Shown: in pieces, positions 1-56,214 of the stretch
Layout of the letters: each line of letters starts with the position of its first letter
How positions within the stretch are numbered: position 1 is the first letter of the stretch
Origin: Patescibacteria group bacterium
GTDB taxonomy: Bacteria > Patescibacteriota > Patescibacteriia > JAHIZJ01
Assembly (NCBI GenBank): GCA_028714495.1
Contig: JAQTMH010000003.1
Coordinates: 72,496 to 136,495, forward strand
Reading direction: 5' to 3'
DNA: 64,000 nt
Position numbers and translations under genes: made by a program
Notes under the pieces: model-generated
What the model saw: the letters and a program-made list of their open reading frames with translations, nothing else
Databases searched by the model: none
What the model was told of the DNA's origin: nothing

Positions 1-1741
1 CGCTGAATTCCGCGGTCAGGGCGGCAATCGACTCTCCCACCCTGGCCGGAACTTTGTTAATCTTCCATTCAATCGCGCGGGTAGCCTGATCAAACGCCAG
101 GGGTTCGCCGGCCGATACCACGCCCTGGCCGATCCAGCTGACTGTTTCCGGCAAAGTGGTTTTAATGCTGGCCTTGGTCAATTCATTCGAAGAATTTTTT
201 AGAGTCCAGAATATTTTAAAAACCGTGGCCTCACCTTCCACCGGCGGCAGCGGTCCGACCCCGATAGCCTTGCCTGATCGATCATAATAGCGCGCTTCAA
301 CCGTTAAAGTCGGCTGGCTCAAAATTCTGGCAGCGACCGCCTGGCTGGTAGCCGAAAATGGTACTGGCTCAGTCCCGCCCGAATTCACCCGCTGCCCGCG
401 ATATTCGATACTAGGCCGTATCTCAAAATTTTCCTTGCCTACGAGTTCGGCCGGCGGCGCTTCGAGCAACTCTATTTCCAGGGTTATTTCAGCCTTATCC
501 CCGGGCTTCAGCTCTTTCAAGGCTTCGACTCCTTTCGCGTCCCAGGTAAGAATCTGGCCTTCTCGGGTAGCGTTTTGGGGATTGATCAAATTCTCCCAAT
601 CTAACGCGTTGACCGCGACTTTTTCATTGTTGCTATATAACTCAAAAGTGGCAATTATTTTTCCTTCATCAAGCTTCACGTCTCCGGCGTTATTTACGTT
701 GATCGCGTAAGCCAAAGTATCGCCCCATTTAACGGCCTGGGTATCGGTTTCTTCATTTAGGTTGGCCGTAACCTGAAGTTGTGGTTCGATCATCAGGATC
801 ATGAAATTTTCCTCCAATTGTTTCTTGACTGAGCCGTCTGATTGAGCCAGGCCAAGACTGCACACTATTTCCTGACTGGCACCGGGCTCGCTTTCAAATT
901 GTCCGTTTATCTTAATACTGCCCGATTCGCCAGCGGGCAGACGATCGATTAACCATTCATCGGATTCATGGCTGGGCTCTGGGTCGGCTGAATTCAGCTT
1001 AAACCCGCTGGGCCAAGTAACCGTCAGCTTGATTTGTTCTAAATCTCGCTTCGACACGTTATCATAGGATATTTCATAATCTACCGGCTGGTTGGGAATG
1101 GCCTCGCGGGGACCCTTGAGCTCAAGATTCAGGGTAGATTCTGAAATTACCACTTCCCAATCAATGCTTTTTTGGAATTCAGAATGGAAATTGAGCGGCG
1201 TGTAGGAGAGCGTGGCGGAAAACTTTTTGCTGGAACCAACTTCGCCAATCATCTGCCCGGTAATTTCCAGGGTGTCGTCCGCGTTCGATAATACGTTATT
1301 CAGACGCCACTGGTTGTTGTATTGATTGGCCGGTCCGTAATTGGCCTTGGCGTAGGTAAAACCCTCGGGGTATTGCACTTCAATAATCAGGTCGCTTAGA
1401 GCTGATGATTCTCGGTTTTTTATATTTATGTTGAGGGTAAATTCTTCGCCTGAAACCGCTTGAGTGCCGCCCAGATAGGAAAAATCCACCCCTGACTCTT
1501 CAAATGGCTTAGTCCGATTAAACAAAAAGAAGCCGGCAATCGCGGCTCCCACGGCTAAAATTAAAAAAACAATTAAACTGACCAGGGCAATCTTCCTCCA
1601 ATTTCTGGTCTTCCTTTCCATACGGGTCATATCAAGGGTTTGACCTTTCTCATCGCGGAATATCGCCTTCATTAAACCGTGCGCGCTATCTTCGCCCTTT
1701 TCAACCCTCTTGGCTTCTTTATTTTTCCCTTTGGCCATCAT
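1..1741 (-). CDS. Partial (C-terminus runs off the window) membrane-anchored protein built from repeated beta-sandwich, DUF11-like domains. Starts MMAKGKNKEAK and has an N-terminal TM helix.
   Basis: Continuous minus-strand reading frame from 1741 to the window edge, read by eye. It is absent from the ORF track, presumably because it is edge-truncated. There is a TM segment after the K-rich N-terminus, and terminator and promoter elements lie upstream. Confidence 0.5.
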   Translation of the reverse strand, partial: MMAKGKNKEAKRVEKGEDSAHGLMKAIFRDEKGQTLDMTRMERKTRNWRKIALVSLIVFLILAVGAAIAGFFLFNRTKPFEESGVDFSYLGGTQAVSGEEFTLNINIKNRESSALSDLIIEVQYPEGFTYAKANYGPANQYNNQWRLNNVLSNADDTLEITGQMIGEVGSSKKFSATLSYTPLNFHSEFQKSIDWEVVISESTLNLELKGPREAIPNQPVDYEISYDNVSKRDLEQIKLTVTWPSGFKLNSADPEPSHESDEWLIDRLPAGESGSIKINGQFESEPGASQEIVCSLGLAQSDGSVKKQLEENFMILMIEPQLQVTANLNEETDTQAVKWGDTLAYAINVNNAGDVKLDEGKIIATFELYSNNEKVAVNALDWENLINPQNATREGQILTWDAKGVEALKELKPGDKAEITLEIELLEAPPAELVGKENFEIRPSIEYRGQRVNSGGTEPVPFSATSQAVAARILSQPTLTVEARYYDRSGKAIGVGPLPPVEGEATVFKIFWTLKNSSNELTKASIKTTLPETVSWIGQGVVSAGEPLAFDQATRAIEWKINKVPARVGESIAALTAEFS

Positions 1742-2896: not shown

Positions 2897-5863
2897 TTAA
2901 TCAAGTTTCTTTAAGCCCAGGGCAATTACCGTCTTTCCCTCTTTGAATTCTTTCTGAACCAGGCTCGTCTCCGGAATCTTGCCGTAAGAAACGCTTCGGC
3001 TGATAGTCTCCTGTTTGACCCAGGCAAGATGCTGCTCCATGGCCAGCTGGTATTTCGCTTCGGCACTATAAAAATAAAACTCGATCGAATCCTTAATCGT
3101 TAAACCCGCTTCCTTTCTTAAGCTGTTTACCTGGCGAATAACTTCCCTGATAAAGCCTTGGTAGTAAAGTTCATCGGTTATCGTGGTATCCAGGGAAACC
3201 GCCACGCCAGCCGCCTCTTTCACCTCCCACTCGGCGCTCTTGAGCAGTTCATTTCTAAAAAATATGTCATGGACATTTACTTCAGCTTTTAGAATATCAA
3301 CAAGTTCAGTCCGGAATGCTTTTGTCCTGACGACCAGCTGGGACAAGGGTTGGCGTACTTTAATACCCCGGCTAGCCCGGGCGGCGTGAACCAGCTCGGC
3401 AATGCGCCTGGTCATATCCATTTCCGCCAACAGTTCCTTCTCTTCCGGCAGATCTTTCAGGTCGGGCCACGGCTCGAGATGAACGCTATCTTTCGCTCCG
3501 CCAACCTCCTGATAAACCGCGTCAGCCAAGAATGGCGTGAACGGAGCCAAATATTCCGTCAAAGTCATTAAAACGTAACCCAGAGTATTTCTTGCCTCAG
3601 CCTGTTCAGATTTTTCGCCGAGCTTAAATCTTTCCCGGCTCCGTCTCACATACCAGGTTGAAAGTTCGGCGATAAAGTCTGCCAGCGTCCGGCCGGCTTC
3701 AGCTATTTGGTATTTGTTCAAACAATCAGTGACTGATTCGCCGGTCTGCCTCAATCTGGCTAAGACCCACCGGTCAAGCACATTCTTGGCTTTGGGCAAG
3801 GCTGGTACCGATGGTTCTGTTTGATATAGCTTATAAAAACTTAGGACGTTCCAAAGGACCAGAAAATTCTTTTTCACGGTTTCCCGCAAGGCCATCGGGT
3901 CAAAGCGCTTGTATTCTCCGGGCTGGTTTACGGTGAAGAAATACCATCTCACCGCGTCAATCCCAAATTCGTTGATGGCGTCATTGGGCTTTACCACATT
4001 GCCCAGGTGTTTGCTCATTTTCCGGCCATCAGCATCCAGAATGTGGCCGAGGCAAACTACGTTTTTATAAGGCGGAAAATTATTGCCCAGGGCGGTTGAA
4101 ATGGCCAGCAGAGTGTAAAACCAGCCGCGCGTCTGGTCAATCGCCTCAGCAATGTAATCAGCCGGGAAACTCACGCCTTTATCAACGCGCTCCTTGTTTT
4201 CAAACGGATAATGCCACTGGGCAAACGGCATCGCGCCGGAATCAAACCAGGTATCAGCCACTTCTGATATGCGTTTCATCTCACCGCCACACTTACAAGG
4301 TATTATTATATCGTCAATAAACGGGCGGTGCGGATCAAACGACTCATCCAGTACTTCCTTTTTACCGCTTCTCTTATTTAATTCCTGATAACTCCCGATG
4401 CATTCCCGTTCTCCGCACTTTTTACACTCCCAAATCGGAATCGGCGTACCCCAGTACCTTTCCCTCGAAATCGCCCAATCCTTTATCTCGTTTAGCCATT
4501 CACCAAACCGGCCTTGTTTGATATATTCCGGCACCCAATTAATTTGCTCATTGTTCTTAATCAGCTGCTCACGCAAAGCCGACATCTTGATAAACCACGA
4601 ATCCTTGGCATAGTACAAAAGCGGGCTGTGGCAGCGCCAGCATTTCGGATAATCATGTTCGTACAATTCTTCCATATAGAGCAGGCCACGTTGTTTAAGC
4701 GAATCAATAATCGCTTGCTCGGTTTTTTTATCCTTTACGTATTGGCCAGCGAACTCTTTAACATCTTTGGTAAAATGCCCATCCGGAGTTACGGTGTGAT
4801 GTTTTGGCAAACTGACTTTTGCGCCGAGTTGATAATCATCTTCGCCGTACATAACCGCGGTATGAACCACACCAGTACCTTCGTCGGTGGTTACAAAATC
4901 AGCAGCGTAAACCTTAAAGGCGTTTTCAAAGCCTTTCACGCTTTCTGGAATCGCACCTGGAAAAAGCGGTTCGTATTCAATGCCAACCAAGTCTTGGCCT
5001 TTTACCCTGTTAATAATATTTATACCAGACTCCATGGGTCTACCACTTTCTATTTTCTTCGATAACGGAAGATTAATAAGCTTCCGTGTTTCATCAGCTA
5101 GAACAAATCTCTCCTCTCCTATTTCAATCTCGATATACTCGGTATCTTTGCTAACCGCCAACCCCACGTTTCCCGGCAATGTCCAAGGGGTAGTTGTCCA
5201 CGACAGAATATAATCTCCTTTTTTGATTTGTCCCTTGTCACTTGTAACTTTAAACTTAACATAAACCGAATTCTCCGTTACTTTCTCATACCCCTGTGCC
5301 ACTTCGTGCGATGACAAGGCGGTCTCGCAGCGCGGACATTGCGGTACGACTTTATAATCCTTAACTAGCAGTTTCTTATCCCAAAGCTGTTTGAAAATCC
5401 ACCACAGCGTTTCGATGTAAGGTTTTTCGTAAGTAATGAAGGGGCGCTCCAGATCCAGCCAATAGCCGATACGTTCGGTCATTTTTTCCCACTCGGCTTT
5501 GTACTTCCAAACGCTGGCCCGGCAGGCTTGGTTGAATTTCTCAATGCCGTACTTTTCAATGTCTTTCTTCCCGGAAACCCCAATCTGCTTCTCCACCTCT
5601 AGTTCAACCGGCAAACCCTGCGTGTCCCAGCCGCCTTTTCGCTCTACGAAATACCCCCGCATGGTCTTGAACCGGCAGATGATGTCCTTAAACGCCCGGG
5701 CTAGCACGTGTCCGATATGCGGCGAGCCGTTGGCTGTCGGCGGCCCTTCGAAAAAAACAAAACGTTTGCCCTGTTTAGTCTGGGCCAGGGATTTTTTGAA
5801 AATATCTTGTTTTTTCCATTTGGCTAGGATGTCCTCCTCTAGCTTCGGAAAGCTCGGTAGCAT
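2897..5863 (-). CDS. ileS: Isoleucyl-tRNA synthetase
   Basis: PPTANGSPHIGHVLARAFKD (HIGH), GWDTQGLPVE, KMSKHLGNVV (KMSKS). Length 988 aa. Confidence 0.9.
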   Translation of the reverse strand: MLPSFPKLEEDILAKWKKQDIFKKSLAQTKQGKRFVFFEGPPTANGSPHIGHVLARAFKDIICRFKTMRGYFVERKGGWDTQGLPVELEVEKQIGVSGKKDIEKYGIEKFNQACRASVWKYKAEWEKMTERIGYWLDLERPFITYEKPYIETLWWIFKQLWDKKLLVKDYKVVPQCPRCETALSSHEVAQGYEKVTENSVYVKFKVTSDKGQIKKGDYILSWTTTPWTLPGNVGLAVSKDTEYIEIEIGEERFVLADETRKLINLPLSKKIESGRPMESGINIINRVKGQDLVGIEYEPLFPGAIPESVKGFENAFKVYAADFVTTDEGTGVVHTAVMYGEDDYQLGAKVSLPKHHTVTPDGHFTKDVKEFAGQYVKDKKTEQAIIDSLKQRGLLYMEELYEHDYPKCWRCHSPLLYYAKDSWFIKMSALREQLIKNNEQINWVPEYIKQGRFGEWLNEIKDWAISRERYWGTPIPIWECKKCGERECIGSYQELNKRSGKKEVLDESFDPHRPFIDDIIIPCKCGGEMKRISEVADTWFDSGAMPFAQWHYPFENKERVDKGVSFPADYIAEAIDQTRGWFYTLLAISTALGNNFPPYKNVVCLGHILDADGRKMSKHLGNVVKPNDAINEFGIDAVRWYFFTVNQPGEYKRFDPMALRETVKKNFLVLWNVLSFYKLYQTEPSVPALPKAKNVLDRWVLARLRQTGESVTDCLNKYQIAEAGRTLADFIAELSTWYVRRSRERFKLGEKSEQAEARNTLGYVLMTLTEYLAPFTPFLADAVYQEVGGAKDSVHLEPWPDLKDLPEEKELLAEMDMTRRIAELVHAARASRGIKVRQPLSQLVVRTKAFRTELVDILKAEVNVHDIFFRNELLKSAEWEVKEAAGVAVSLDTTITDELYYQGFIREVIRQVNSLRKEAGLTIKDSIEFYFYSAEAKYQLAMEQHLAWVKQETISRSVSYGKIPETSLVQKEFKEGKTVIALGLKKLD

Positions 5864-20644: not shown

Positions 20645-21100
20645 ATGAAATCAAAAACAGCCTTAATGGCAATCCTGGTCACTTCTTTGGCCGGCGTCAT
20701 CTATTCAGGCTACCTCACCTATAATAACTACTGGGGTGGCGGATGCGAGAAAGCGATTGTAAGTTGCAGCGGCGGCGGACAGCCAGTAGAGATTTTTGGA
20801 CTGCCAACGTGTGTTTACGGTTTCTTTATGTTTCTAATTGTAGCCATTCTCTCGATCATTGGCCTGGGCCAGGATAAAAAAACCTATCTCAAATCAATTT
20901 TCGTTATTTCACTTATCGGCACCCTCTTTGCCCTTGGCGTAACAATATACGAAATGTGGATAATGGAAAATCCAGCGACAACCCTGCCAGCTTGCGCTTA
21001 TGGATTTTTCATATATCTAATCGCCTTAATCTTCGCTTCACTTGGTTTCCGTGGAATGAAGACGACTCCTCCGGCAGTCATCACTCCGCCGCAAGTATAA
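20645..21100 (+). CDS. Small 4-TM integral membrane protein with a Cys-containing loop (GGGCEKAIVSCSGGG) and an internally duplicated LP(T/A)C(V/A)YGFF motif. TM1 looks VKOR-like but there is no CXXC.
   Basis: 151 aa. TM1 ...SGYLTYNNY is reminiscent of the VKOR family, but the catalytic CXXC is absent. Confidence 0.4.
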   Translation: MKSKTALMAILVTSLAGVIYSGYLTYNNYWGGGCEKAIVSCSGGGQPVEIFGLPTCVYGFFMFLIVAILSIIGLGQDKKTYLKSIFVISLIGTLFALGVTIYEMWIMENPATTLPACAYGFFIYLIALIFASLGFRGMKTTPPAVITPPQV

Positions 21101-22992: not shown

Positions 22993-23021
22993 TAAAAAAG
23001 ATACGAGATTGCTCTCGTATC
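22993..23021 (-). terminator. Rho-independent terminator ending the GC-rich operon
   Basis: gatacgaga-ttgc-tctcgtatc, followed on the minus strand by TTTTTT. Confidence 0.5.
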
Positions 23022-23031
23022 GAAATGAACA

Positions 23032-23937
23032 TTAGAGACTAGGCCGGGTGTCTCGGAGATATTCCATGAAGTACTGGGCATCTCGAGTACAACCCTTGGG
23101 CAGTCGTGGAACATCGCGGCACAGCACTGGCCGACCCGAGCATTCGCCCACTGCCTGCCAGAGCTTGATGCTCTGATCCAGCACAAACCTGGAAAAATCA
23201 ATCACGCAGTCAGTCGGAATCGAAGCGCCGCTGATCGGATCGCCGAACGGCAGGCAATACGGCAAAGCCACTTCTGGCTCGCACGGAATCACCTGGCTAT
23301 CAACCCGACGACCTGCGGTCCTCCCGGATAAAGGAACGCCGACATAAAAGTCCCGCTCGCAGACCCAATCAACTACAGCTGGGTACTCGCGCACACCGAC
23401 CAGCTCCACCCATGGATGCTTGGCCAGAAGCTGGTTTTCCGGCCGGCCAATGATTATCCCGACGATGACTTGACTGACCACATAGCCATTTTCCCGCATT
23501 AGTTCGGTTATCCGAAGCAGGGTGCCGCCTGAATAGCAACCGTCGTCAACCAGTGAAATCGGACGACCCTTGGGTAAAGATCTGATTTGGTCAACTAATG
23601 ACTCGAAGCCGGCACGACGCGATTCGCCTAGAATCTGGGTCGTGCTGATATCAGCCACGCGGTTGCACTCCAGATGATAGGGCGTCTGGTTGTAGATCTG
23701 GTCGATCGAGACAACGATCGTTCCGGCGGCTCGGGCAGCAATCGCGGCTTGCAGTTTTCCGCTCAAATCAGCCAGTTCGATAAGTTCAAGCGGCCGAAAG
23801 ATCGTTCGCAGATAGCCAAGCAGCTCCTGCTGGAGGGTCCGGAAAAAGTCCGAACTCGGACAGCTGAAGCCAACACGCTCGGCCCATCTGCGCATGAGGA
23901 ATTCCAGATCCTCGGTTACGAGGTAGGGTGGCTTCAT
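23032..23937 (-). CDS. Type-I phosphoribosyltransferase-like protein (PRPP-binding motif) with N- and C-terminal extensions. GC-rich.
   Basis: PISLVDDGCYSGGTLLRI matches the VLLVDD..TGGT PRPP loop. 301 aa. About 58% GC. 4-bp overlap with the upstream gene. Confidence 0.5.
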   Translation of the reverse strand: MKPPYLVTEDLEFLMRRWAERVGFSCPSSDFFRTLQQELLGYLRTIFRPLELIELADLSGKLQAAIAARAAGTIVVSIDQIYNQTPYHLECNRVADISTTQILGESRRAGFESLVDQIRSLPKGRPISLVDDGCYSGGTLLRITELMRENGYVVSQVIVGIIIGRPENQLLAKHPWVELVGVREYPAVVDWVCERDFYVGVPLSGRTAGRRVDSQVIPCEPEVALPYCLPFGDPISGASIPTDCVIDFSRFVLDQSIKLWQAVGECSGRPVLCRDVPRLPKGCTRDAQYFMEYLRDTRPSL

Positions 23938-24773
23938 GCTCTCCTCCTTTTCCCTAAGGGTTTCGTGGAAATCCGCTGTAGGATTTCCAGAGCTCCAGCT
24001 GTGATCGGCTCCGTAGCCACAAAGTCAGCGACCGCCTGTAATTCAGCGGCAGCATTGCTGACAGCGCAAAGTAGGTCTACATGTCCTAAGAGCCTGGCGT
24101 CGCTCCTGCCATCGCCAATGGCGATCACCCTGTATCCACGATACTTCCGCCGTAGCACGGGAACGGCAAGCTCTTTGTCTAACCCGGCACTTGATAGAAT
24201 CAGCACACCACATTCAGCATTGGCATCGATGTCCACCAACTCGGTTATTCCCAGTCTATCGAGAACCACTTTCACGGTCCCGACCACGCTGGGATAAGCT
24301 CCATAATCAGGAGTCAGCTGGTTTGTCCAGACATGCAGGCCAAAGCCACAGAGACGGAATGGATTGATGACAATCATCGTGCCTGACCGCGCATCTAGCC
24401 CGCGTTGGTTCGACAGGAGATCAAGGTAGTATTCCTCAGTCAGGGCGAAGTCTGGAAAAGCGCTCCGGAGTGAAGATATAATCAGCTGCTTGACCGAATG
24501 CCAGCCGATTACCTGCTGTCGAGTAAGTAGGTGACTGCCGGACAGCGTCGAGACAATGGCTCCTTTTTCACTGACGATCGGACCGGTAAAACCGAATATC
24601 CCCATCCAGCGCCGAAGCGGCTCATACGGAGTATCCGAGTTTAGCCCGAAAAGATCGCCCGCCTCCATCATCTGTCGAACCAATAGTTTGAACGCGTCTA
24701 GCTGGATTGTCGGCTGATAATCCCGACCGATAAGACTCATGTCGAGATCGCAGAGAATCAGTCTGGGTCTCAT
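23934..24773 (-). CDS. HAD-superfamily phosphatase (HAD-IIB / Cof-like). GC-rich.
   Basis: LILCDLDMSL (DxD motif I), IAIGDGRSDARLL (motif IV). 279 aa. Confidence 0.65.
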   Translation of the reverse strand: MRPRLILCDLDMSLIGRDYQPTIQLDAFKLLVRQMMEAGDLFGLNSDTPYEPLRRWMGIFGFTGPIVSEKGAIVSTLSGSHLLTRQQVIGWHSVKQLIISSLRSAFPDFALTEEYYLDLLSNQRGLDARSGTMIVINPFRLCGFGLHVWTNQLTPDYGAYPSVVGTVKVVLDRLGITELVDIDANAECGVLILSSAGLDKELAVPVLRRKYRGYRVIAIGDGRSDARLLGHVDLLCAVSNAAAELQAVADFVATEPITAGALEILQRISTKPLGKRRRA

Positions 24774-25783
24774 ATGGCCACCTCAGCCAGCGAAGAGATT
24801 AGGCGACCGGCCTGTTCCTGCATGGCTTCGATCAGCCAGACCCGTTCAGGATCTAGACAATAGTCACAACGGCAGGCGGCATAGGCACTGTAGTAGACCG
24901 CGCAGCACAATTCATAGAGCTGAGGCGTAAATATCCCCGCCTCAATCATCAGTTGCCGTGCCCTTTTGATTCTGCGCAAGGCGCCAAGATGGAATACAGA
25001 TCCCACAGTCTTTCTGATCTCCAATTCCTTGCGTCTGAGCGAGGCTTCGAGAGCGGCTAGGTCAACTGCGATGTTTCCGTCCGCCAAGCGCTCTTTGGAC
25101 CAAGGCAACGCCATCTTCGGGTCAATGAATCTGACCCGTGGCTGGTCAAGCGATTCGCTAACCAGCACATTGATAGCGACATTATCTTTCAGCGCCATCG
25201 AAGAAGACCAGCGTTCGAAAAACCAGGGAAAACGCTTTTGCAGCCGATCCAGCGCTGGGTTCAATCCGGTCATTTTCGCCCTTTCCAGATTTACCCGAAA
25301 CGCGCTCAGGCATTCCTGGAAAAACGTCTCTTGATCGTCTTGATTGCCGCGACTGGTCAAACTGTAGATCATTCTCAGCTTGTCAATCACCTGGCCGACG
25401 ATGTTGCCGATCTGAGATTGGCGTCGCTGGATGATTGGATGGTGACACGGCAGTGTTTCAAGCCATTCGCACAGGTCCAGGCAAATCGCCTCAAGCGTCC
25501 GTTCCCCCGCCACTTCCAGAAACAGCACTCCTTGATCATCCGTTTGGTTGACGAGTCGAAAATCAGGCAGAAACTCACCATATCGATCACCCAGCCGTGC
25601 CTGAAGAGTCCGATAAGCAGCCACATCGCCATTCAAGATGTCCAGCCGGCCGGCCTTCACCACGCCCCGGACCAGAAATGTGTCAGCGCCAGAAGCACCC
25701 TCTTGCCTGTCAAATGTCATCAAGCTGACTGCCGCTGATGCCGAACCAATCAAACCCTGCTTTGCTAAACCCAAGAATTCCAT
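24770..25783 (-). CDS. Hypothetical protein, possibly a small-molecule kinase of the APH/choline-kinase fold (weak). GC-rich.
   Basis: ALKDNVAINVL (D-x4-N), RFIDPKMA...DLAALE, reminiscent of the HGDxxxxN / IDxE.A / DLA motifs. RBS GGAGGGGAG. 337 aa. Confidence 0.35.
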   Translation of the reverse strand: MEFLGLAKQGLIGSASAAVSLMTFDRQEGASGADTFLVRGVVKAGRLDILNGDVAAYRTLQARLGDRYGEFLPDFRLVNQTDDQGVLFLEVAGERTLEAICLDLCEWLETLPCHHPIIQRRQSQIGNIVGQVIDKLRMIYSLTSRGNQDDQETFFQECLSAFRVNLERAKMTGLNPALDRLQKRFPWFFERWSSSMALKDNVAINVLVSESLDQPRVRFIDPKMALPWSKERLADGNIAVDLAALEASLRRKELEIRKTVGSVFHLGALRRIKRARQLMIEAGIFTPQLYELCCAVYYSAYAACRCDYCLDPERVWLIEAMQEQAGRLISSLAEVAI

Positions 25784-25939
25784 GGTCTCCCCTCCTCGTT
25801 TGTTGGTCAGTTTTCAAAGAGCCATTATAGTCAATGAGTGACTAGCAAATTTATTCGAGCCGTTTCCTTTAGTCTTTCATCAAATCAATGCTTCAGGTAT
25901 TCAAGGGAATTTAGTATATATAATCCAGTTTGTCAATGC

Positions 25940-27058
25940 TTAAGAAACCAAAGCATTTTTCTGCAATATTATGGCTTGTTTTAACACCTCGAAACTGGCT
26001 GGCCTCAGTTCCCAAATCACGCACAATTTACCATCGCTATTGGCGCTGATCATCTCCAGAACCGTCTTGGCTGATTTGAAAACAAATCCGACTGGAATGT
26101 GGTCGTCAATTACCACATCCCTGACGATTTGCCGCTTGTACCAAAAATCCGCTTTGGCTTTTTTGAGCTGATCCGGGCTGGCTTCTTTCGTAAATTCTTT
26201 GGTTGTCAGAGAATCAGACAGGTGCACTGCTTTTATCCTTTTTAATATTTCGGGATTATCAGCAAGTTCCTTTTTAATTCTCTGGTCAATCGAATCCGGT
26301 CTATCACCTGCTTCTTGCCCTAACACCGCAACACTGTGTGCTGTATCAAAAGTAACACCTACTTCATTTAAGTCACGGTTTATAAATATTTCCCTAAAAT
26401 CCGCCAGCCGCCGCACGCCCCTATCAATCGCACTGCCGTTTTCAAGCGTTAATAGTTTGGCAAAACCAGAATCGCGCTTTATCAAGTCTTCGGTAAATTG
26501 CCGAACTGCGCTGATCACTGCCTGATCAGAATATTTCCGATCGCCAAATAAAATATCATCATAATCAATCTGATTCGCGTGCCAAGTAGCAACCCTGGCA
26601 TCCAGCTCGCCAGCGATATCTAACTCTCTAGTTAAACGTTCAATCATTACTTCTGGTTTATCGCCGCTGAAATATTTTCGGACATTGGCTGGAGTATAAA
26701 AAGTACGCAGCAATCTCGCCTGATCTTGCTTGTAAAAAGGTATCCAGCTGGCCCAGTCTGATAAGTGGACAGTTAAATTTCCCTGAAATCTGATTTTCTT
26801 CAGCGGATTTGGATCAAAATTCTCGGTAAAACCGATAAAATCCTGGATCCGAATTTCCATTCCGTCAAAGCCCTGTTCCAGGCACCAGTTTTCAATTCTC
26901 GACAAATCCCTGTTAAACTCCTTGATAATCAGTGAGTTGACTGACAACAGCTGAAATCTGGCCGACTTTTCTTTCTTCCAAAGCAAATCAAAGTCTGCTG
27001 GCGGTTTGAGCGCCTTGAACTTTTCCTCGATTAATTTGTCTTTGCTGGTTAATTCCAT
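25940..27058 (-). CDS. Xylose-isomerase-like TIM-barrel protein (sugar-phosphate isomerase/epimerase or AP-endonuclease-2 family)
   Basis: Motifs VHLSDWA, VATWHANQ, LLTLEN, VTFDTAHS, VHLSDS. 372 aa. Confidence 0.55.
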   Translation of the reverse strand: MELTSKDKLIEEKFKALKPPADFDLLWKKEKSARFQLLSVNSLIIKEFNRDLSRIENWCLEQGFDGMEIRIQDFIGFTENFDPNPLKKIRFQGNLTVHLSDWASWIPFYKQDQARLLRTFYTPANVRKYFSGDKPEVMIERLTRELDIAGELDARVATWHANQIDYDDILFGDRKYSDQAVISAVRQFTEDLIKRDSGFAKLLTLENGSAIDRGVRRLADFREIFINRDLNEVGVTFDTAHSVAVLGQEAGDRPDSIDQRIKKELADNPEILKRIKAVHLSDSLTTKEFTKEASPDQLKKAKADFWYKRQIVRDVVIDDHIPVGFVFKSAKTVLEMISANSDGKLCVIWELRPASFEVLKQAIILQKNALVS

Positions 27059-27063
27059 ACAGG

Positions 27064-27822
27064 TTATTTGCTTAAAAGTTCAACCGCCCGTAAAGCAACC
27101 TTGATAGCTTTATCCACGCCTTGATCTGCCTCGGCTGAAGTCTCCAATTTATAAATTAAACCGGGGTCTTTCGCAATCTCGTCCAGCGGTTCAGTGGTAT
27201 TGACCGATAAAACCGTGCCGGCTTTTAAACCTCGCAGCTGGGCTAGCGTAAACACAGCCGAGCATTCCATTTCCGAACTCACTAGCTCGCCTTTTTTATA
27301 TTCAGGCAAATCCATCAGTTTTAAGAAATTATCAGTTGGCTCGTAAAATGAATCGTGCGTGCGGTTTGTGCCGATGAAATATTTAATATTTAATTCTTCA
27401 GCTGCTTGCTTCAAAGCCCGAAACACCTCAGGGTCGGGTTTGGCTTCGAATTCCTCGCCGACATATTCTTTGGTGGTGCCTTCCTGTCGGATCGCCTTAT
27501 CTGGAATAATTAAGTTCCCTGGAACAATGGTTTTCTTCAGGGCGCCGCAAGTGCCAATACGGATGAATATCTTGGCGCCTACCTTAGCCAGCTCCTCAAC
27601 GGCAATGGCCGCCGAGGGAGAACCAATGCCCGTCGAAGTGGCGGAAATTGGAATGCCTTTATATTTACCCGTGTAGGTCAAAAATTCCCTGTTAAAAACA
27701 ACCTCACGGGATTCGTCCCAATATTCGGCGATTCTCCTAACTCGAGCTGGATCGCCTGGAATCAAAACAATTTCGGCGATATCGCCTGGTTTAATTCTCA
27801 GATGTGGTTGTAAATTTTCCAT
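27064..27822 (-). CDS. Nucleoside phosphorylase of the PNP/UDP family-1 (DeoD/Udp-like)
   Basis: IPGDPARV...GIPISATSTGIGSPSAAIAVEEL...RIGTCGAL...SSEMECSA. 252 aa. Confidence 0.8.
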   Translation of the reverse strand: MENLQPHLRIKPGDIAEIVLIPGDPARVRRIAEYWDESREVVFNREFLTYTGKYKGIPISATSTGIGSPSAAIAVEELAKVGAKIFIRIGTCGALKKTIVPGNLIIPDKAIRQEGTTKEYVGEEFEAKPDPEVFRALKQAAEELNIKYFIGTNRTHDSFYEPTDNFLKLMDLPEYKKGELVSSEMECSAVFTLAQLRGLKAGTVLSVNTTEPLDEIAKDPGLIYKLETSAEADQGVDKAIKVALRAVELLSK

Positions 27823-27840: not shown

Positions 27841-28136
27841 AAAAAACTCTCATTCCTCGACAAGTTATTAAAAATAATAACTAGCTAAGGAACGAGAGTT
27901 TACTCCCGCGGTCCCATCCTTATTTCCGGTCTTTACCTTAAATCAGGCAACAACCAGACACTTATTTCAAGCTTCACGATGCGTGACCACCGTTCCCGGT
28001 TTTGACCGGGACTGCTTAAGAGGTGTGTTCAATGGTTTTCTGGGCCTGGCTTCCACTGTCCCAAGCTCTCTATTCAGCCAGAAATGGCCATTTACTATGC
28101 CTCTTTGTTAGCGCATTTGAATTAAATTATCAAGGT
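27841..28136 (-). promoter_or_regulatory. T-box riboswitch leader, His-specific (specifier CAC, antiterminator bulge UGGG), with its own promoter and an intrinsic terminator directly before the nucleoside phosphorylase gene
   Basis: Stem I UGGCUGAAUAGAGAGC... and specifier loop GAA-CAC-A are visible on the minus strand. The T-box sequence AAUAAGGAUGGGACCGCGGGAG is the reverse complement of 27907-27920. The terminator is AAACUCUCGUUCCU...AGGAAUGAGAGUUU plus U6 at 27841-27898, with UAGCUAGUUAUUAUUUUUAAUAACUUGUCG intervening. The antiterminator alternative is AAGGA[UGGGACC]GCGGGAG/CUCUC/UCCUU. The promoter is TTGACT, 18 nt, TAATCT. Confidence 0.75.
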
Positions 28137-28188
28137 AAATATAAGATTACACCATTGGCCTATTTCTAGTCAAATATCGGTTGTGGAT

Positions 28189-28220
28189 AAAAAAAGCCGT
28201 TGAGCAAGTTACTCAACGGC
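28189..28220 (-). terminator. Rho-independent terminator of hisS, overlapping its stop codon
   Basis: gccgttgag-caagtta-ctcaacggc followed by U7 on the minus strand. Confidence 0.55.
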
Positions 28221-29600
28221 TTCAAGAAGTGAACGAATGTGCGAAATCAATTGGTCGCGCGGAACCGAGTGCTGTTTGCCTGCTGCGCCGAATGTGGTCC
28301 GGAGGTTCTTCACGGAAGCTTCGCCTCGGCTGAGCTCATCAGGACCGACCACGATCGCGATCGGTATCCGCTGAACATCGGCGTATTTGAACTGACGGCC
28401 GATGCGCGTTTCCTCACCCATGTAGAGCTCAGTATTCAGGCCCTCTCGTCTAAGCTCCGTGGCCAGCTGCTGGTAGACACCCAACTGGTTTTGATCAAAG
28501 ACGGTGACCAGAACCTGGGTTTTGCTAGGCGCTGTTCCAACCAAGCCGAGCTGTTCCAGGGCGGCGAAGAGCCGATCTACGCCGATCGAAGCACCGGTAG
28601 CAGGAATGCTGGTTTCGCTGAACCGGCCGATAAGTCCATCAAACCGTCCGCCGGAAAACACGCTGCCCCAGGTCGGCAAATCCAGAAGCCTCGTCTCAAA
28701 CACCGGACCGGTGTAGTAAGCCAGACCTCTGGCAATTGACAGGTCGATGATGAAACGCTCGGGCGGGATGCCTTGGGCTTTGAGTCCGGACAGAATCTGT
28801 TCCAGCTCGACGATCCCTTCGTCAACGGCCGAGCAGCCATTGAAGAAGCGCCTGAGCTGTTCGATCGTCTCAACCGGACTTCCTCCTGAAATGCCGACGA
28901 ATTCCATAATCCGATCAGCAATTTCCGGAGCCAAACCGATGCAGCGAGCACCGGCAGGTACTTCTCTCTGATCCACGCCTTCAGGCCCTTGCTTGGTCAG
29001 GGTGGCTTTGACTTCTTCGAGGCCGACTCTCTCGATCTTGTCTAGGGTCCGGAAGATGTCCGTGGCCCAGAAAGGATCGAGGCCCAAGAAAACCATCAAA
29101 GCGTTCAGGATCTTGCGGTTGCTGAAACGGATCAGGAAACGGGTAAGCCCCAGCTCAACCAAAGTGTCGTGGATGATGGCGATGATTTCAGTGTCAGCGG
29201 CCATTGAGCTGGTGCCGACAGTGTCAATGTCGAATTGCACGAATTCGCGGAAGCGTCCAGGTGCCGGTTCATCGCCGCGCCAGACCGGTCCGACCACGTA
29301 CCGTTTGAACGGTCGGGGCAGATCCGGGTACAGGGCGACAAACCGAGCCAGAGGTATGGTGTGATCGAAACGCAGTCCGGCTGGACGTCCTTCAGGATCA
29401 TCAAATCGGAAGATCTTAAGTTCGCTTGCATCAGTCTCTTCGCCGAGGAGAATCCTACGGTCTTCAATCGCCGGCGTCTCAATCGGTACAAAGCCATAGC
29501 GTTCATAAACGCGACGGATCTTCTCGATTAACGCTTGCCTGGCAATCATTTGAGCCGGCAGGTAATCTCGAAGTCCGCGCAGAAGTCGTGGTTCAATCAT
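28209..29600 (-). CDS. hisS: Histidyl-tRNA synthetase (class II). GC-rich. The start is taken at the internal Met so as not to overlap tRNA-His.
   Basis: RGLRDYLP, FREFVQFDID (motif 2), GGRFDGL, GASIGVDRL (motif 3), an anticodon-binding C-terminus. AGGTGA sits 10 nt upstream of ATG 29600. The ORF-track start at 29687 would overlap the tRNA. Confidence 0.85.
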   Translation of the reverse strand: MIEPRLLRGLRDYLPAQMIARQALIEKIRRVYERYGFVPIETPAIEDRRILLGEETDASELKIFRFDDPEGRPAGLRFDHTIPLARFVALYPDLPRPFKRYVVGPVWRGDEPAPGRFREFVQFDIDTVGTSSMAADTEIIAIIHDTLVELGLTRFLIRFSNRKILNALMVFLGLDPFWATDIFRTLDKIERVGLEEVKATLTKQGPEGVDQREVPAGARCIGLAPEIADRIMEFVGISGGSPVETIEQLRRFFNGCSAVDEGIVELEQILSGLKAQGIPPERFIIDLSIARGLAYYTGPVFETRLLDLPTWGSVFSGGRFDGLIGRFSETSIPATGASIGVDRLFAALEQLGLVGTAPSKTQVLVTVFDQNQLGVYQQLATELRREGLNTELYMGEETRIGRQFKYADVQRIPIAIVVGPDELSRGEASVKNLRTTFGAAGKQHSVPRDQLISHIRSLLEAVE

Positions 29601-29637
29601 CTTCTGATCACCTGCCTTTCTTGATACGCCAGAAAAG

Positions 29638-29716
29638 ATGGGGGGCCGGACGGGAATCGAACCCGCGACCTCTTGATCCACAGTCAAGCGCTCTGACCAA
29701 CTGAGCTACCGACCCC
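29638..29716 (-). tRNA. tRNA-His (anticodon GUG) with genomically encoded G-1, C73 and CCA
   Basis: GGGGGUCGGUAGCUCAGUUGGUCAGAGCGCUUGACUGUGGAUCAAGAGGUCGCGGGUUCGAUUCCCGUCCGGCCCCCCA. Cloverleaf checked by hand. G-1:C73. Confidence 0.9.
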
Positions 29717-29736
29717 CAACACCACGAAGAGCCAAA

Positions 29737-29812
29737 AGACTGGGGCGAGACGGGAATCGAACCCGCGACCTCTTGATCCACAGTCAAGCGCTCTGACCAA
29801 CTGAGCTACTCG
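29737..29812 (-). tRNA. Second tRNA with a GUG anticodon. Its 60-nt core is identical to tRNA-His but the acceptor stem differs (GGGCGAG/CUCGCCC). It keeps C73 but has C at -1 and no encoded CCA.
   Basis: CGGGCGAGUAGCUCAG...GGUUCGAUUCCCGUCUCGCCC-C. The interior is identical to the upstream tRNA-His. Confidence 0.7.
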
Positions 29813-29858
29813 CCCGTTTTCCCGGCCTGAGTTTGTAACAGACCGGGAACTTGTGCAC

Positions 29859-31478
29859 CTAGAGCGCCGCCGCAACCGCTTGCCGCAAAGCGCCGCTCTG
29901 GATCAGCTTCAACATCTTCTGATGGTCAGCCATGAGGAATCGATCATCATTCATCTCCTCGATGGCCGACCGGATCACCTGAAGGGCGACACTGGTACCG
30001 CGACCGAGCTTCGGATCATTGAGCGACTTCTGAGTCAGAGTAATGCCCTGGGCCGCTCCGATGAGCTCCCACGCGATCACCGCGAAAGCCAGCTCGATCA
30101 CCCGACGCATGTGCCGAGCCGAGATTGAAGCCATGCTGACATGATCTTCCTGGCCAGCTGAGGTCGGGATCGAAATCGCCTTGGCTGGATAGCACATTAC
30201 TGCGCATTCAGCGACTAGGGCAGCCACCGCGTATTGGGCAATCATTAGCCCGGTATTGAGGTCTGACTCACCAGCCAAATCAGCTGGCAAGCCATAGCTC
30301 GATTCCGGGTTCAGCAGAGCGTACAAACGAGAGTTCGAGATGTTAGCCAGGCACTGGGCGGCCAGTTTCATCTGCTCACTGGCATGCCCGAGCGGTTCTC
30401 CGTGGAAATTGCCACAAGACACTGCGACAAACTGCTCGCCAACTTGGAAGATCAGCGGATTGTCAGTCGCCGAGTTTGCCTCGATTGACAGAGCTTCCTT
30501 TGCCCGATCAATGATTTCTCTGACCGGGCCGGCCACTTGCGGATAGCACCGGTAAGAATAGGCGTCCTGAACGCGCGGCACCTTCAGATCATTCGGCTGA
30601 GACTTCACATGCTCAGCTGGCAAATCGACCAGTCGACAAGCATGGGTCATCCGCTCTGAACCAGCAGTCAGCTGACGAATCTCTGCTGCCACCTGGATCT
30701 GACCCGGATAGGGTCTGGCCAGGTGAACCCGTTCGTCAAACGCAGCTGTCTCACCGCGGATCGCTTCGAGCGAGAGCGCAGCTGCCAAATTCGAGTACCA
30801 AAGCAGAGACTCAAGGTCAGCCTGTCCCAGAATTGCCTGGGCCAGAATGAAAGTCGAACCATTGGTCAGAGCCATGGCTTCCTTGCCTTTGAGAACGATC
30901 GGCTGCAGATCAGCGGCAATCAGCGCATACTTGGCCGTCATGAATTCACCCTGATACCAGGCACGCTGTTCTTCCGATCCCATGAGCGTTGCCGAGACAT
31001 GCGCCAGTGGACAGAGATCGCCACTGGCACCGACTGAGCCGATCTGCGGAACATAGGGAATCACGCCGGCATTGTAGAGATTGACCAGACTCGCGCAGAG
31101 TTCAGGCCGTACGCCGGAATGCCCCTTGGCAAAGGAATTGGCCCGCAATACCAGTGCCAGTCTGACTACCTCGTCTGGGAACGGTTCGCCAAAACCAACG
31201 CAGTGAGCCGGAATGTAGTGCCTCTGATACGCGGTGATTTCTTCACCGGGAATCATGACGCACTTGCGACTGCCGCAGCCAGTGTTGAAACCATAGACCG
31301 CGTGATCTTGGCCGTAAGCGACCAGACCATCACGAAACTGACCAATCTCCTGCATTCTTTCCCCGGTGATTTCAACCCGGGGAAAAAGGTGAACGCCGGT
31401 AGCATCATCCTCACCCCGGGCTGCCAGAAGACAATCGGGCAAACCGAGATTTTCGCCATCGAGCCTGATATCGCGCAT
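29859..31478 (-). CDS. MIO-dependent aromatic amino acid ammonia-lyase / aminomutase family (HAL/PAL-like). GC-rich.
   Basis: GSVGASGDLCPLAHV (the Ala-Ser-Gly MIO triad), YGFNTGCG, NPLIFQVGEQ. The start is at the internal Met preceded by AAAGGAGA. The position equivalent to the HAL Ser-His selectivity pair reads Ala-His. Confidence 0.7.
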   Translation of the reverse strand: MRDIRLDGENLGLPDCLLAARGEDDATGVHLFPRVEITGERMQEIGQFRDGLVAYGQDHAVYGFNTGCGSRKCVMIPGEEITAYQRHYIPAHCVGFGEPFPDEVVRLALVLRANSFAKGHSGVRPELCASLVNLYNAGVIPYVPQIGSVGASGDLCPLAHVSATLMGSEEQRAWYQGEFMTAKYALIAADLQPIVLKGKEAMALTNGSTFILAQAILGQADLESLLWYSNLAAALSLEAIRGETAAFDERVHLARPYPGQIQVAAEIRQLTAGSERMTHACRLVDLPAEHVKSQPNDLKVPRVQDAYSYRCYPQVAGPVREIIDRAKEALSIEANSATDNPLIFQVGEQFVAVSCGNFHGEPLGHASEQMKLAAQCLANISNSRLYALLNPESSYGLPADLAGESDLNTGLMIAQYAVAALVAECAVMCYPAKAISIPTSAGQEDHVSMASISARHMRRVIELAFAVIAWELIGAAQGITLTQKSLNDPKLGRGTSVALQVIRSAIEEMNDDRFLMADHQKMLKLIQSGALRQAVAAAL

Positions 31479-31789
31479 GACCGTTTCTCCTTTTGTGAGA
31501 AGCCCGCGAGCGACTGGTTTCGTTCTAGCAGTACGAGATTCCGTTCTCGGCCATAGACTGACCTCCTCGTGTTTGGATGGTTTGTTTGCGTAGTGGGTAA
31601 TTACAAGATAATCCTGCCCGCTTAACAAGCAAGATTATTGTCAATGTACTAGCTTTTCCAAGAATAACTCATCTTATCACGGGCCCAGAATCACTGTCAA
31701 TTAGCCCTTATGCACATAGCTTACTACATAATATTCTCAATAAAAAAGGCCGGGGGTTCATACACCCTGACAAAGTACTGGGTACGATA

Positions 31790-55568: not shown

Positions 55569-55611
55569 AAATTAAAGCGTCTTAAGAAAACCTGTAAGCC
55601 GAATTCTGTCC

Positions 55612-55725
55612 CTGAACCACTCACTTCGCTTCGCGAAGCTCGGGTTCAGGGCTCTGCCCATTAAATATAGTGGGCAAGGCCCTGAATCCCGAGCGACGCA
55701 CCGCGGAGCGAGTGGTTCAGAGGAT
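55612..55725. repeat. Copy A of a roughly 113-bp repeat with 18-nt inverted arms, located inside rnpB
   Basis: cctgaaccactcacttcgcttcgcgaagctcgggttcagggc...cgcaccgcggagcgagtggttcag. About 85-90% identical to the copy at 56215-56328. Confidence 0.9.
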
Positions 55726-56214
55726 GACCATCTATCTAGTCCTGACGTTGCCGTCAGGCTCAAGCAACCTACCCGCCCCGTACCGATCCTAATGGGTCTG
55801 GTACAGGGCCTATTCGGTCTTGCACCTGGCAGGGTTTTTCACGCCAGGCCATTGCTGGCTCAGCCTGTGGGCTTTTACTTTTGCCCAACACCCTTTCGGA
55901 TATTGAGTTTATTCCACACAAAGGTGGACCCACTCTTTTCACCCTTGCTTTTTGCCTGTTAAGTCATTAACAGGCCAATTAGCGGTTTTGTCTCTGTGAC
56001 ACTGTCCCTGGGCTTCTGAGAATCCAAAAAGTCTATAGCACTTTTTAAATCCTCCTTACTCCCGCCTTCATTTCGAAGGTGCCATTGTCCCGCCCACCTT
56101 TCCAGCCATGGTCAACGATAGACATTGGTCAAAGGCGAAGCCGCCTAGCGGCTAACGCATCAGTGAATAACAGCCATTGATAGAAAGGTGGGCGGGGGTG
56201 TTCGGACTTTCCTC

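Follow-up and report, generated by a model that had tools for sequence, protein, structure and literature searches.

A 64,000-nt stretch of contig JAQTMH010000003.1 from a Patescibacteria group bacterium (assembly GCA_028714495.1; hereafter the window) carries a T-box riboswitch leader that very probably works as a tRNA-His sensor gating a five-gene operon. The T-box is an ordinary class I, transcription-attenuating element, and its novelty lies in its target and its host phylum. An earlier reading of the letters of this DNA (hereafter the sequence-only reading) had proposed a full T-box leader on the minus strand. A match to the Rfam T-box family RF00230 was found at 27885-28118, with all of the elements listed in that reading present. 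Coordinates below are those of the window, in which the leader and the operon lie on the minus strand, and L-numbers denote loci of relatives.

Identity and architecture of the T-box leader

In a permissive scan, the RF00230 match covers the full length of the model (positions 1-219), with an E-value of 1.9e-20 in a 601-nt search and of 2e-18 in the entire 64-kb window. The sequence-only reading had named such a covariance-model scan as its check. The match itself bore the reading out, but its 90.6 bits are under the gathering score of 93 bits. Zero T-boxes are reported in the window at the gathering threshold, and the element is absent from routine annotation because it scores just under this curated cutoff. 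No second T-box was found in the whole-window RF00230 scan. The parts of the leader are as follows.

27885-28118, minus strand: T-box leader (RF00230), covariance-model match of 90.6 bits
28018-28106, minus strand: Stem I, from the covariance-model alignment, carrying the AG bulge, distal loop and specifier loop
28066-28074, minus strand: AG bulge AAUAGAGAG, with AGAGAG aligned to the model
28048-28062, minus strand: distal loop ACAGUGGAAG, from the covariance-model alignment
28024-28030, minus strand: specifier loop GAA-CAC-A (S-turn GAA, codon, purine), with the CAC codon at 28025-28027
27994-28012, minus strand: Stem II hairpin, from the covariance-model alignment
27973-27993, minus strand: Stem IIA/B region, from the model alignment, nearly invariant across leaders
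27925-27959, minus strand: Stem III, from the covariance-model alignment
27907-27920, minus strand: T-box sequence AGGAUGGGACCGCG, with the UGGG bulge at 27913-27916, within the antiterminator helix
27887-27921, minus strand: antiterminator helix, bulged, -13.2 kcal/mol by folding
27845-27900, minus strand: terminator hairpin, -29.3 kcal/mol and z = -8.5 by folding
27841-27846, minus strand: U6 run after the terminator, from the sequence

The specifier loop, AG bulge and distal loop of Stem I all align to the RF00230 model. Every structural T-box feature that was tested is present, save for the 93-bit threshold and a clear kink-turn (K-turn). The terminator and antiterminator use the same strand CUCUCGUUCCUU and are mutually exclusive in the folding, as had been proposed. 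The distance from the last U of the U6 run to the ATG at 27822, given earlier as about 20 nt, was measured at 18 nt, which leaves no room for a downstream promoter.

Conservation and covariation among seven leaders

Six further leaders of the same type, all below 93 bits, are located upstream of the same operon family in other Patescibacteria lineages (L004, 92.9 bits; L002, 88.3; L010, 77.2; L129, 86.7; L130, 92.6; L131, 81.6). These relatives were reached via the contigs of homologs of the TIM-barrel protein of the operon and via contigs found through its phosphoribosyltransferase-like (PRTase-like) protein. Because L129-L131 were retrieved by protein rather than by RNA pattern, their specifiers and UGGG bulges are independent observations. 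GAA-CAC-A and AGGAUGGGACCGCG are present in all seven leaders, and both the specifier heptamer and the core are invariant. The assignment of CAC (His) as the specifier, made earlier from one sequence, thus holds across seven diverged leaders in which Stem I covaries.

In the RNAalifold analysis of the seven-leader alignment, 36 of 77 pairs show compensatory changes. Across Stems I, II, III and the terminator, 91.7% of the alignment cells pair. Double changes occur in 36 of 64 pairs, compared with 18.6 +/- 2.7 in shuffles (0/500) and 17 or fewer in slid registers. By element, compensatory pairs make up 20/23 in Stem I helices 1-4, 5/7 in Stem II and 6/12 in Stem III. A hairpin followed by a U run is found in every leader, and the upper stem of the terminator covaries. 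By this comparison, the predicted structure, the specifier assignment and the predicted terminator are supported well beyond a single-sequence reading.

RNAalifold also pairs the IIA/B segment ACGGUGGUCAC.CAUCGU with the T-box core AAGGAUGGGACCGCG over about 13 pairs (alignment A3 columns 145-162/220-234; window ~27975-27992 with 27907-27921). All of these pairs are invariant, so they carry no covariation evidence, and the pairing may be artefactual or may add to the OFF state. A metagenome scan with the Stem IIA/B block ACGGTGGTCACNCATCGTGAA returned only a chance match within a coding region (L128).

The cognate tRNA

Two tRNA-His(GUG) genes are located 1.7 kb upstream of the leader, between the lyase gene described below and hisS (ARAGORN and Rfam).

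29639-29716, minus strand: tRNA-His(GUG) copy 2, with C73 and with G-1 and CCA encoded; cognate ligand
29742-29815, minus strand: tRNA-His(GUG) copy 1, with C73 and C at -1; CCA not encoded

Because both genes have the GUG anticodon and C73, the CAC specifier is compatible with the anticodon and the UGGG bulge with the NCCA end. The tandem genes differ in their acceptor stems, and L002 likewise has a tandem pair. Duplicated tRNAs are unusual in the small genomes of the Candidate Phyla Radiation (CPR). Among the His T-boxes of TBDB, CAC is the favored specifier (PMC7778990). TBDB skips discriminator matching for these T-boxes, because C73 of the mature tRNA-His can be paired with G-1 (PMC7778990). 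Moreover, tRNA-Gly and tRNA-Thr in the window have U73, which could wobble with G. The sequence-only reading had the UGGG bulge pair with a CCCA end as a signature of tRNA-His. The C73 of both tRNA-His genes agrees with this, but the G-1 pairing and the U73 wobble weaken the argument, so the UGGG is supportive rather than decisive.

Promoter, flanking terminator and proposed switching

The boundary between hisS and the T-box unit holds the following features.

28189-28223, minus strand: intrinsic terminator of hisS, 14-bp stem and T run
28182-28190, minus strand: invariant 9-mer TTATCCACA, 8 nt 5' of the -35; possible protein-binding site
28144-28173, minus strand: putative sigma-70-type promoter TTGACT-18-TAATCT, -35 at 28168-28173 and -10 at 28144-28149

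The predicted hisS terminator insulates the T-box unit from hisS. The promoter that the sequence-only reading had placed just after this terminator is present as a sequence, but its -10 is weak. The -35 is conserved in six of the seven leaders and the -10 keeps TAnnnT. The promoter is not listed by a consensus promoter scan, which yields no excess over chance in this region; it is conservation that marks the sequence as a putative promoter. The 9-mer TTATCCACA is identical to the DnaA-box consensus. It is found at equal spacing in the window, L004 (3760), L010 (3725) and L129 (4937), and at 10 nt in L002 (8865), and L130 carries TTTTCCACA in its place. The arrangement TTATCCACA-N6-12-TTGAC is missing from the other ~120 CPR loci among the matches listed. 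A second copy of TTATCCACA at 20955-20963 (minus strand) is probably due to chance.

From this anatomy we infer tRNA-dependent switching. Transcription would start at the leader's own promoter, just 3' of the hisS terminator, and the CAC specifier of Stem I would read the GUG anticodon of tRNA-His. The free 3' end of uncharged tRNA-His would pair with the UGGG bulge and stabilize the weak antiterminator, resulting in readthrough into the operon. With charged tRNA-His, the much stronger terminator would form 18 nt before the ATG. By this logic, the operon would be switched on by histidine starvation.

The five-gene operon

Terminators are found after hisS and after the fifth gene, so the unit consists of five genes behind the leader.

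27064-27822, minus strand: gene 1, NP-I family nucleoside phosphorylase (PNP/UDP_1), 252 aa, Pfam 140 bits
25940-27058, minus strand: gene 2, xylose-isomerase-like TIM barrel, 372 aa, Pfam AP_endonuc_2, 30 bits
25908-25936, minus strand: promoter-like site TTGACA-17-TAAATT, consensus match only, in the 156-nt gap before gene 3
24770-25783, minus strand: gene 3, APH/choline-kinase-type small-molecule kinase, 337 aa; homologs carry PF01636
23934-24773, minus strand: gene 4, HAD-IIB (Cof-type) phosphatase, 279 aa, from family searches
23032-23937, minus strand: gene 5, divergent type I PRTase-like protein, 301 aa, from family searches and fold comparison
23000-23021, minus strand: intrinsic terminator closing the operon, from a terminator scan

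The gene 1 product is below the NCBIfam cutoffs (TIGR01718, 214 vs 280 bits; TIGR00107, 120 vs 232), and its closest solved structures are 1odi (PNP of T. thermophilus) and 3qpb (UP of S. pyogenes). Judged from the sequence, membership of this PNP-like protein in the NP-I family is certain; it is predicted to be a normal hexamer-type enzyme. The TIM-barrel protein has only four homologs among 5.8 billion proteins. Its structure model (pLDDT 79.5) has ketose 3-epimerases, YcjR, Art22 and C-glycoside deglycosidase subunits as best folds. The kinase has a DxxxxN...IDPK motif, and sequence searches of the PDB with the TIM barrel and the kinase gave zero matches. No member of the operon family is more constant than the PRTase-like protein. 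Its VDDG...SG loop for phosphoribosyl pyrophosphate (PRPP) and an extra C-terminal CERDF motif are invariant, and its model (pLDDT 94.5) resembles XPRT, OPRT and APRT best, at the fold level only. No his-gene homolog was found elsewhere in the window.

Neighboring genes and locus rearrangement

Upstream of the leader is a block that comprises a histidine ammonia-lyase-like (HAL) gene, the two tRNA-His genes and hisS, which encodes a histidyl-tRNA synthetase (HisRS).

29859-31478, minus strand: HAL-like gene, first of the HAL-tRNA-His-hisS block
28209-29600, minus strand: hisS (HisRS with anticodon-binding domain), TIGR00442 356 bits, above cutoff

HAL is closest to that of P. putida (1gkm, 2e-85) and conserves both the ASG triad and the residues at the SH and QEDH motif positions. 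In the whole-window scan, no T-box was found 5' of HAL or hisS; only a conserved promoter is present there. This HAL-block promoter, TTGACA-18-TG-n-TAAGAT, and a 55-nt stretch are found within 31626-31700 (minus strand), with an L002 counterpart at 4590-4670. The stretch is 87% identical between the two genomes, and their coding regions are ~68% identical.

The L004 locus, from a close relative, has flanks ~95% identical to those of the window and retains leader, promoter region and PNP gene at 91% identity. It is without the 3.56-kb HAL-tRNA-His-hisS block (window 28195-31758, GC 0.54 vs ~0.46), and there is no hisS nearby. Because L004 keeps the leader without the hisS block, the leader is an autonomous 5' element of the operon rather than a hisS trailer. 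The earlier proposal that the leader controls the PNP-like operon and not hisS is in line with this locus and with the strong hisS terminator. The middle cassette of the operon also differs, with TIM' and AstE in L004 and TIM, kinase and HAD in the window (23951-27013). The sequences indicate that the extra HAL block and the cassette swap arose by recent modular recombination.

The histidine link across Patescibacteria

The sequence-only reading saw no obvious link between the operon and histidine. This part of it did not hold, as synteny with hisS, HAL and tRNA-His and a HisR-type regulator were found. HAL-like and hisS genes are directly 5' of the T-box in the window, L002, L129, L130 and L131, and tRNA-His genes are beside HAL/hisS in all of these except L131. 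In L133 (Uhrbacteria), which is without a T-box, HAL heads the enzyme set on one strand (HAL, LOG-like, APH-kinase, HAD, HAD, PRTase-like, GNAT and M20, in this order) and a divergent hisS adjoins. The operon core (PNP-like or LOG-like, HAD and PRTase-like) is found beside hisS and HAL in at least six lineages.

In L005-L008 and L132, the position of the T-box is occupied by a 99-aa PF01371 HisR-type gene. The best solved relatives of its product are 3frw, 3g1c and 3kor (E 1e-14 to 2e-18; 3g1c, 2e-17), and no chain named E. coli TrpR is among the solved relatives at E <= 1. Of these, 3g1c is the HisR of E. eligens. HisR (YerC) is a TrpR-family repressor with histidine as co-repressor (PMC9413887). 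Because the HisR-type gene sits where the T-box is otherwise found, two unrelated histidine sensors appear to guard homologous operons. By these comparisons, the downstream operon belongs to a predicted histidine regulon that is widespread in Patescibacteria.

A single copy of the firmicute HisR operator core TTTAnnnnnnTAAA is found in L132, and none in L005 or L008. An 18-bp palindrome 3' of the HisR-type gene, CAATGTGTTAACACATTG, is perfect in L008 and has one mismatch in L005, and is a candidate operator. The regions 3' of the HisR-type gene, before the PNP or AstE gene (L005 8213-8511, L008 903-1140, L132 5027-5179), also hold a small NNHH-containing open reading frame and conserved hairpins with U runs. 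Taken together, these features may point to a further attenuator.

A scan of GTDB representative genomes with the 19-nt T-box core found at least 119 loci, almost all in Patescibacteria. UGGG is common to these loci by construction, because the query contained it. The genes downstream of 126 cores on the same strand, among the matches listed, include hisG (41), hisS (36), EamA (24), hisD (20), M15 (12), LOG-like (11) and M20 (10). In L028, a short His T-box core is followed by PRTase-like, PNP-like (47% identical to that of the window), hisS and EamA genes; in L090, the order is short His T-box core, PRTase-like, LOG-like, hisS and EamA. PNP and LOG both cleave N-glycosidic bonds and occupy the same slot in these two loci. 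M20, M15 and AstE hydrolases are the first genes after His T-boxes elsewhere in CPR, again among the matches listed.

Several other arrangements were observed among the core-sharing loci. In ~33 cores among the matches listed, a tRNA-His gene is 90-290 nt downstream, often followed by hisS-EamA; examples include L009, L014, L015, L025, L035, L036, L039, L042, L044 and L054. Such a riboswitch would gate transcription of its own ligand. In loci of Saccharibacteria (L022, L027, L073, L100, L106, L062, L072 and L125), His T-box cores head truncated sets, such as hisG, hisE, a 250-aa protein without Pfam match and GNAT, or hisG and LOG-like. The remaining his pathway is outside the operon, and on the opposite strand a gene for an M15 (VanX-like) dipeptidase follows a second core. 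Many contigs (L010, L018, L021, L028 and others) are titled 'uncultured Gammaproteobacteria bacterium' (TPA) and have CPR-type gene content. One record so titled is identical to the L002 contig, the proteins of which group with those of Patescibacteria. The titles of these records are probably wrong.

Short-form leaders in CPR

At least 86 of 129 CPR leaders that share the T-box core (among the matches listed, L009-L127) have an ultrashort Stem I; examples are L054 (5646-5833, minus strand), L028 (2332-2519, plus strand) and L017 (~150-292, plus strand). This is a covarying 4-6 bp hairpin in which a 7-9 nt loop, (A)GUCACGA or GUCACGCC, displays CAC, and GAGCUG follows. Short-form leaders precede tRNA-His, hisS or hisG, and they score ~44 bits or are missed with the Rfam model. 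A naive GAA-NNN-R specifier search gave spurious GCC and GTT 'specifiers', and canonical Stem I closure yielded CAC only in the PNP-type leaders. An nhmmer profile of three leaders could not place specifiers, as only the core aligned in the other CPR loci. The remaining core-sharing loci are explained by the short hairpin form. With the specifier in a hairpin terminal loop, these short forms resemble the ultrashort-Stem-I (class II) ileS T-boxes of Actinobacteria (PMC7778990), whereas the window leader keeps a long Stem I. Because terminator-type hairpins, and often a tRNA gene, follow, the CPR short forms probably act on transcription rather than translation.

Weighing the T-box and the function of the operon

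Several observations count against a histidine T-box that controls a histidine-linked operon. At 90.6 bits, the leader is below the RF00230 gathering score of 93, although this cutoff reflects curation rather than structure. At the base of Stem I, no GA/K-turn is evident (UAA...UAAGC in the window vs UGA...GGAGC in the model); GAGC is kept at this position in L002 and L130. The -10 TAATCT matches TATAAT at only three of six positions. The antiterminator and T-box core are invariant, so no covariation evidence comes from them, and the fourth T-box pair is uncertain because C73 can pair with G-1 (PMC7778990). Transcription from the promoter-like site ahead of gene 3 might free genes 3-5 in part from T-box control. 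In family searches, the five operon proteins match no his, transporter or aminoacyl-tRNA synthetase (aaRS) family, and the structure comparisons give the fold class only. Finally, induction at histidine starvation fits awkwardly with a histidine-degrading HAL.

The score under the threshold and the degenerate K-turn would also be expected of a leader that is decaying or mis-assigned, being either no longer regulatory or not His-specific, with AAC (Asn) or ACA (Thr) as the frame. A wobble of the UGGG bulge with the U73 of tRNA-Thr would fit the latter. We consider this highly improbable. Seven lineages retain GAACACA, the core and a terminator while compensatory changes abound, and in more than 86 short-form CPR leaders, which precede tRNA-His, hisS or hisG, a GUCACGA loop presents CAC. 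In addition, the only tRNA-Thr in the window has the anticodon CGU and would not read ACA.

As for the role of the operon, which we infer from its gene content and neighbors, our best guess, in which we have little confidence, is that its enzymes raise histidine levels, or spare histidine, via a ribosylated, phosphorylated or acylated imidazole compound. Such a pathway probably works together with the neighboring HAL and HisRS. Across lineages, the module contains pairs of activities that add and remove a group, namely PRTase and PNP/LOG, kinase and HAD, and GNAT and AstE/M20. Such pairs suggest that a ribose or acyl group serves as the handle on which a base is carried, modified or released. 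A role in histidine supply or sparing is favored because both regulators would turn the operon on at histidine shortage and because M20, M15 and AstE genes follow His T-boxes elsewhere in CPR. In a more specific form, PRTase-like, PNP/LOG and HAD (with or without kinase, TIM barrel, AstE/M20 and GNAT), together with HAL and HisRS, would constitute a new ribose-scaffolded, histidine-linked pathway particular to Patescibacteria. We give this a little less than an even chance. Ribosylated imidazole compounds might be the source from which this pathway releases or makes histidine (or urocanate).

Alternatively, the T-box may work while the operon serves general nucleoside scavenging or starvation, supplying ribose-1-P and PRPP from host nucleosides. 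Uncharged tRNA-His would then be a mere proxy for starvation, without any histidine-specific chemistry. The PNP-like protein is an ordinary-looking NP-I member, and PNP, kinase, HAD and PRTase are generic salvage activities. Histidine synthesis uses up PRPP and ATP, which makes co-regulation with nucleoside salvage plausible. However, the operon clusters repeatedly and specifically with HAL and hisS, and a HisR-type regulator replaces the T-box elsewhere. The accessory AstE, M20 and GNAT proteins point to amino-acid-conjugate chemistry, and the PRTase-like and TIM-barrel families are rare, divergent and unlike housekeeping salvage enzymes. We regard a scavenging module as rather unlikely.

Another explanation is that the locus is a cluster for a histidine- or urocanate-derived nucleoside-like metabolite (a signal or antimetabolite), with HisRS as a dedicated or resistant copy. 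The HAL-tRNA-hisS block, with its GC of 0.54 vs 0.46, is present or absent between genomes that are ~95% identical in their flanks. The TIM barrel resembles ketose 3-epimerases, and the PRTase-like protein weakly touches 7f06 (E 0.059, not significant), the adenine phosphopsicosyltransferase of a nucleoside-antibiotic pathway. A PRTase with HAD, TIM barrel, kinase and LOG-like proteins is a recurring set in pathways for nucleoside-like metabolites. The window operon family shares these enzyme classes (PRTase, HAD, epimerase-type TIM barrel, kinase and LOG-like) with angustmycin/psicofuranine-type pathways, but there is no significant sequence relationship, and the regulatory logic and the phylum differ. 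A T-box that turns on at histidine scarcity would be the wrong logic for histidine consumption, and homologs are found within ordinary hisS-EamA operons (L028 and L090). Furthermore, no second hisS was shown and CPR genomes are small, so the HisRS is probably the housekeeping copy. A metabolite cluster is judged unlikely, more so than the scavenging module.

Three other ideas were set aside. For recycling or detoxification of the 5-aminoimidazole-4-carboxamide ribonucleotide (AICAR) that histidine biosynthesis produces, there are no his genes in the window, and the his genes of some genomes with related modules are limited to hisG and hisE. For HisRS as a HisZ-like PRTase partner, the anticodon-binding domain is kept and the hisS equivalog cutoff is passed. 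The third was regeneration of PRPP by PNP, kinase and a reversed PRTase.

Comparison with known systems

The window leader is similar to class I T-boxes (RF00230) in its long Stem I with AG bulge, distal loop and S-turn specifier loop, its Stems II, IIA/B and III, its 14-nt T-box sequence with a UGGN bulge, its competing terminator and antiterminator, and its CAC specifier. The His T-boxes known so far control hisS, his operons and histidine transporters, including hisXYZ/yuiF in Firmicutes (PMC9413887). In that paper, 'phosphorylase' is absent and 'phosphoribosyltransferase' is used only for HisG/HisZ. Unlike these Firmicutes T-boxes, the window leader is in a CPR host and its target is a set of PNP-like, TIM, kinase, HAD and PRTase-like genes rather than an aaRS, biosynthesis or transporter gene. 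Moreover, it is 3' of an unregulated hisS, scores just below the cutoff and is without a clear K-turn. HisR (PMC9413887) would have the same regulatory role as the window T-box, namely repression when histidine is plentiful, but HisR acts as a protein on DNA and the T-box as an RNA on tRNA, and HisR is not in the window. A literature search in a limited collection found no paper combining T-box with Patescibacteria, CPR or Saccharibacteria.

In Lactobacillus, the hisS-hdc (histidine decarboxylase) cluster reportedly has an aaRS gene adjoining a histidine-consuming enzyme, with the T-box preceding the aaRS gene. Similarly, the window hisS adjoins the histidine-consuming HAL and a His T-box is in the same locus. 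However, the window hisS is without a T-box, and the T-box controls a separate downstream operon.

Farther along the window, an RNase P class A RNA match is present at 55579-56100 (minus strand; 92.3 bits, gathering score 100). As it stretches over 522 nt, against 367 positions in the model, insertions are probable.

Implications for Patescibacteria

T-boxes are widespread in CPR, mostly in an ultrashort-Stem-I form that is barely detected by Rfam. In the window, the specificity of the T-box puts a functional label on five genes without an assigned role, and, independently, a HisR-type regulator gives the same histidine label, as does the synteny with HAL, hisS and tRNA-His. Hypothetical proteins are thereby turned into a testable hypothesis on histidine acquisition in Patescibacteria, a huge and largely uncultured group in which amino-acid economy is poorly understood. 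If the ribose-scaffolded pathway proves true, organisms presumed to be plain histidine auxotrophs would have a dedicated, non-canonical route of histidine supply.

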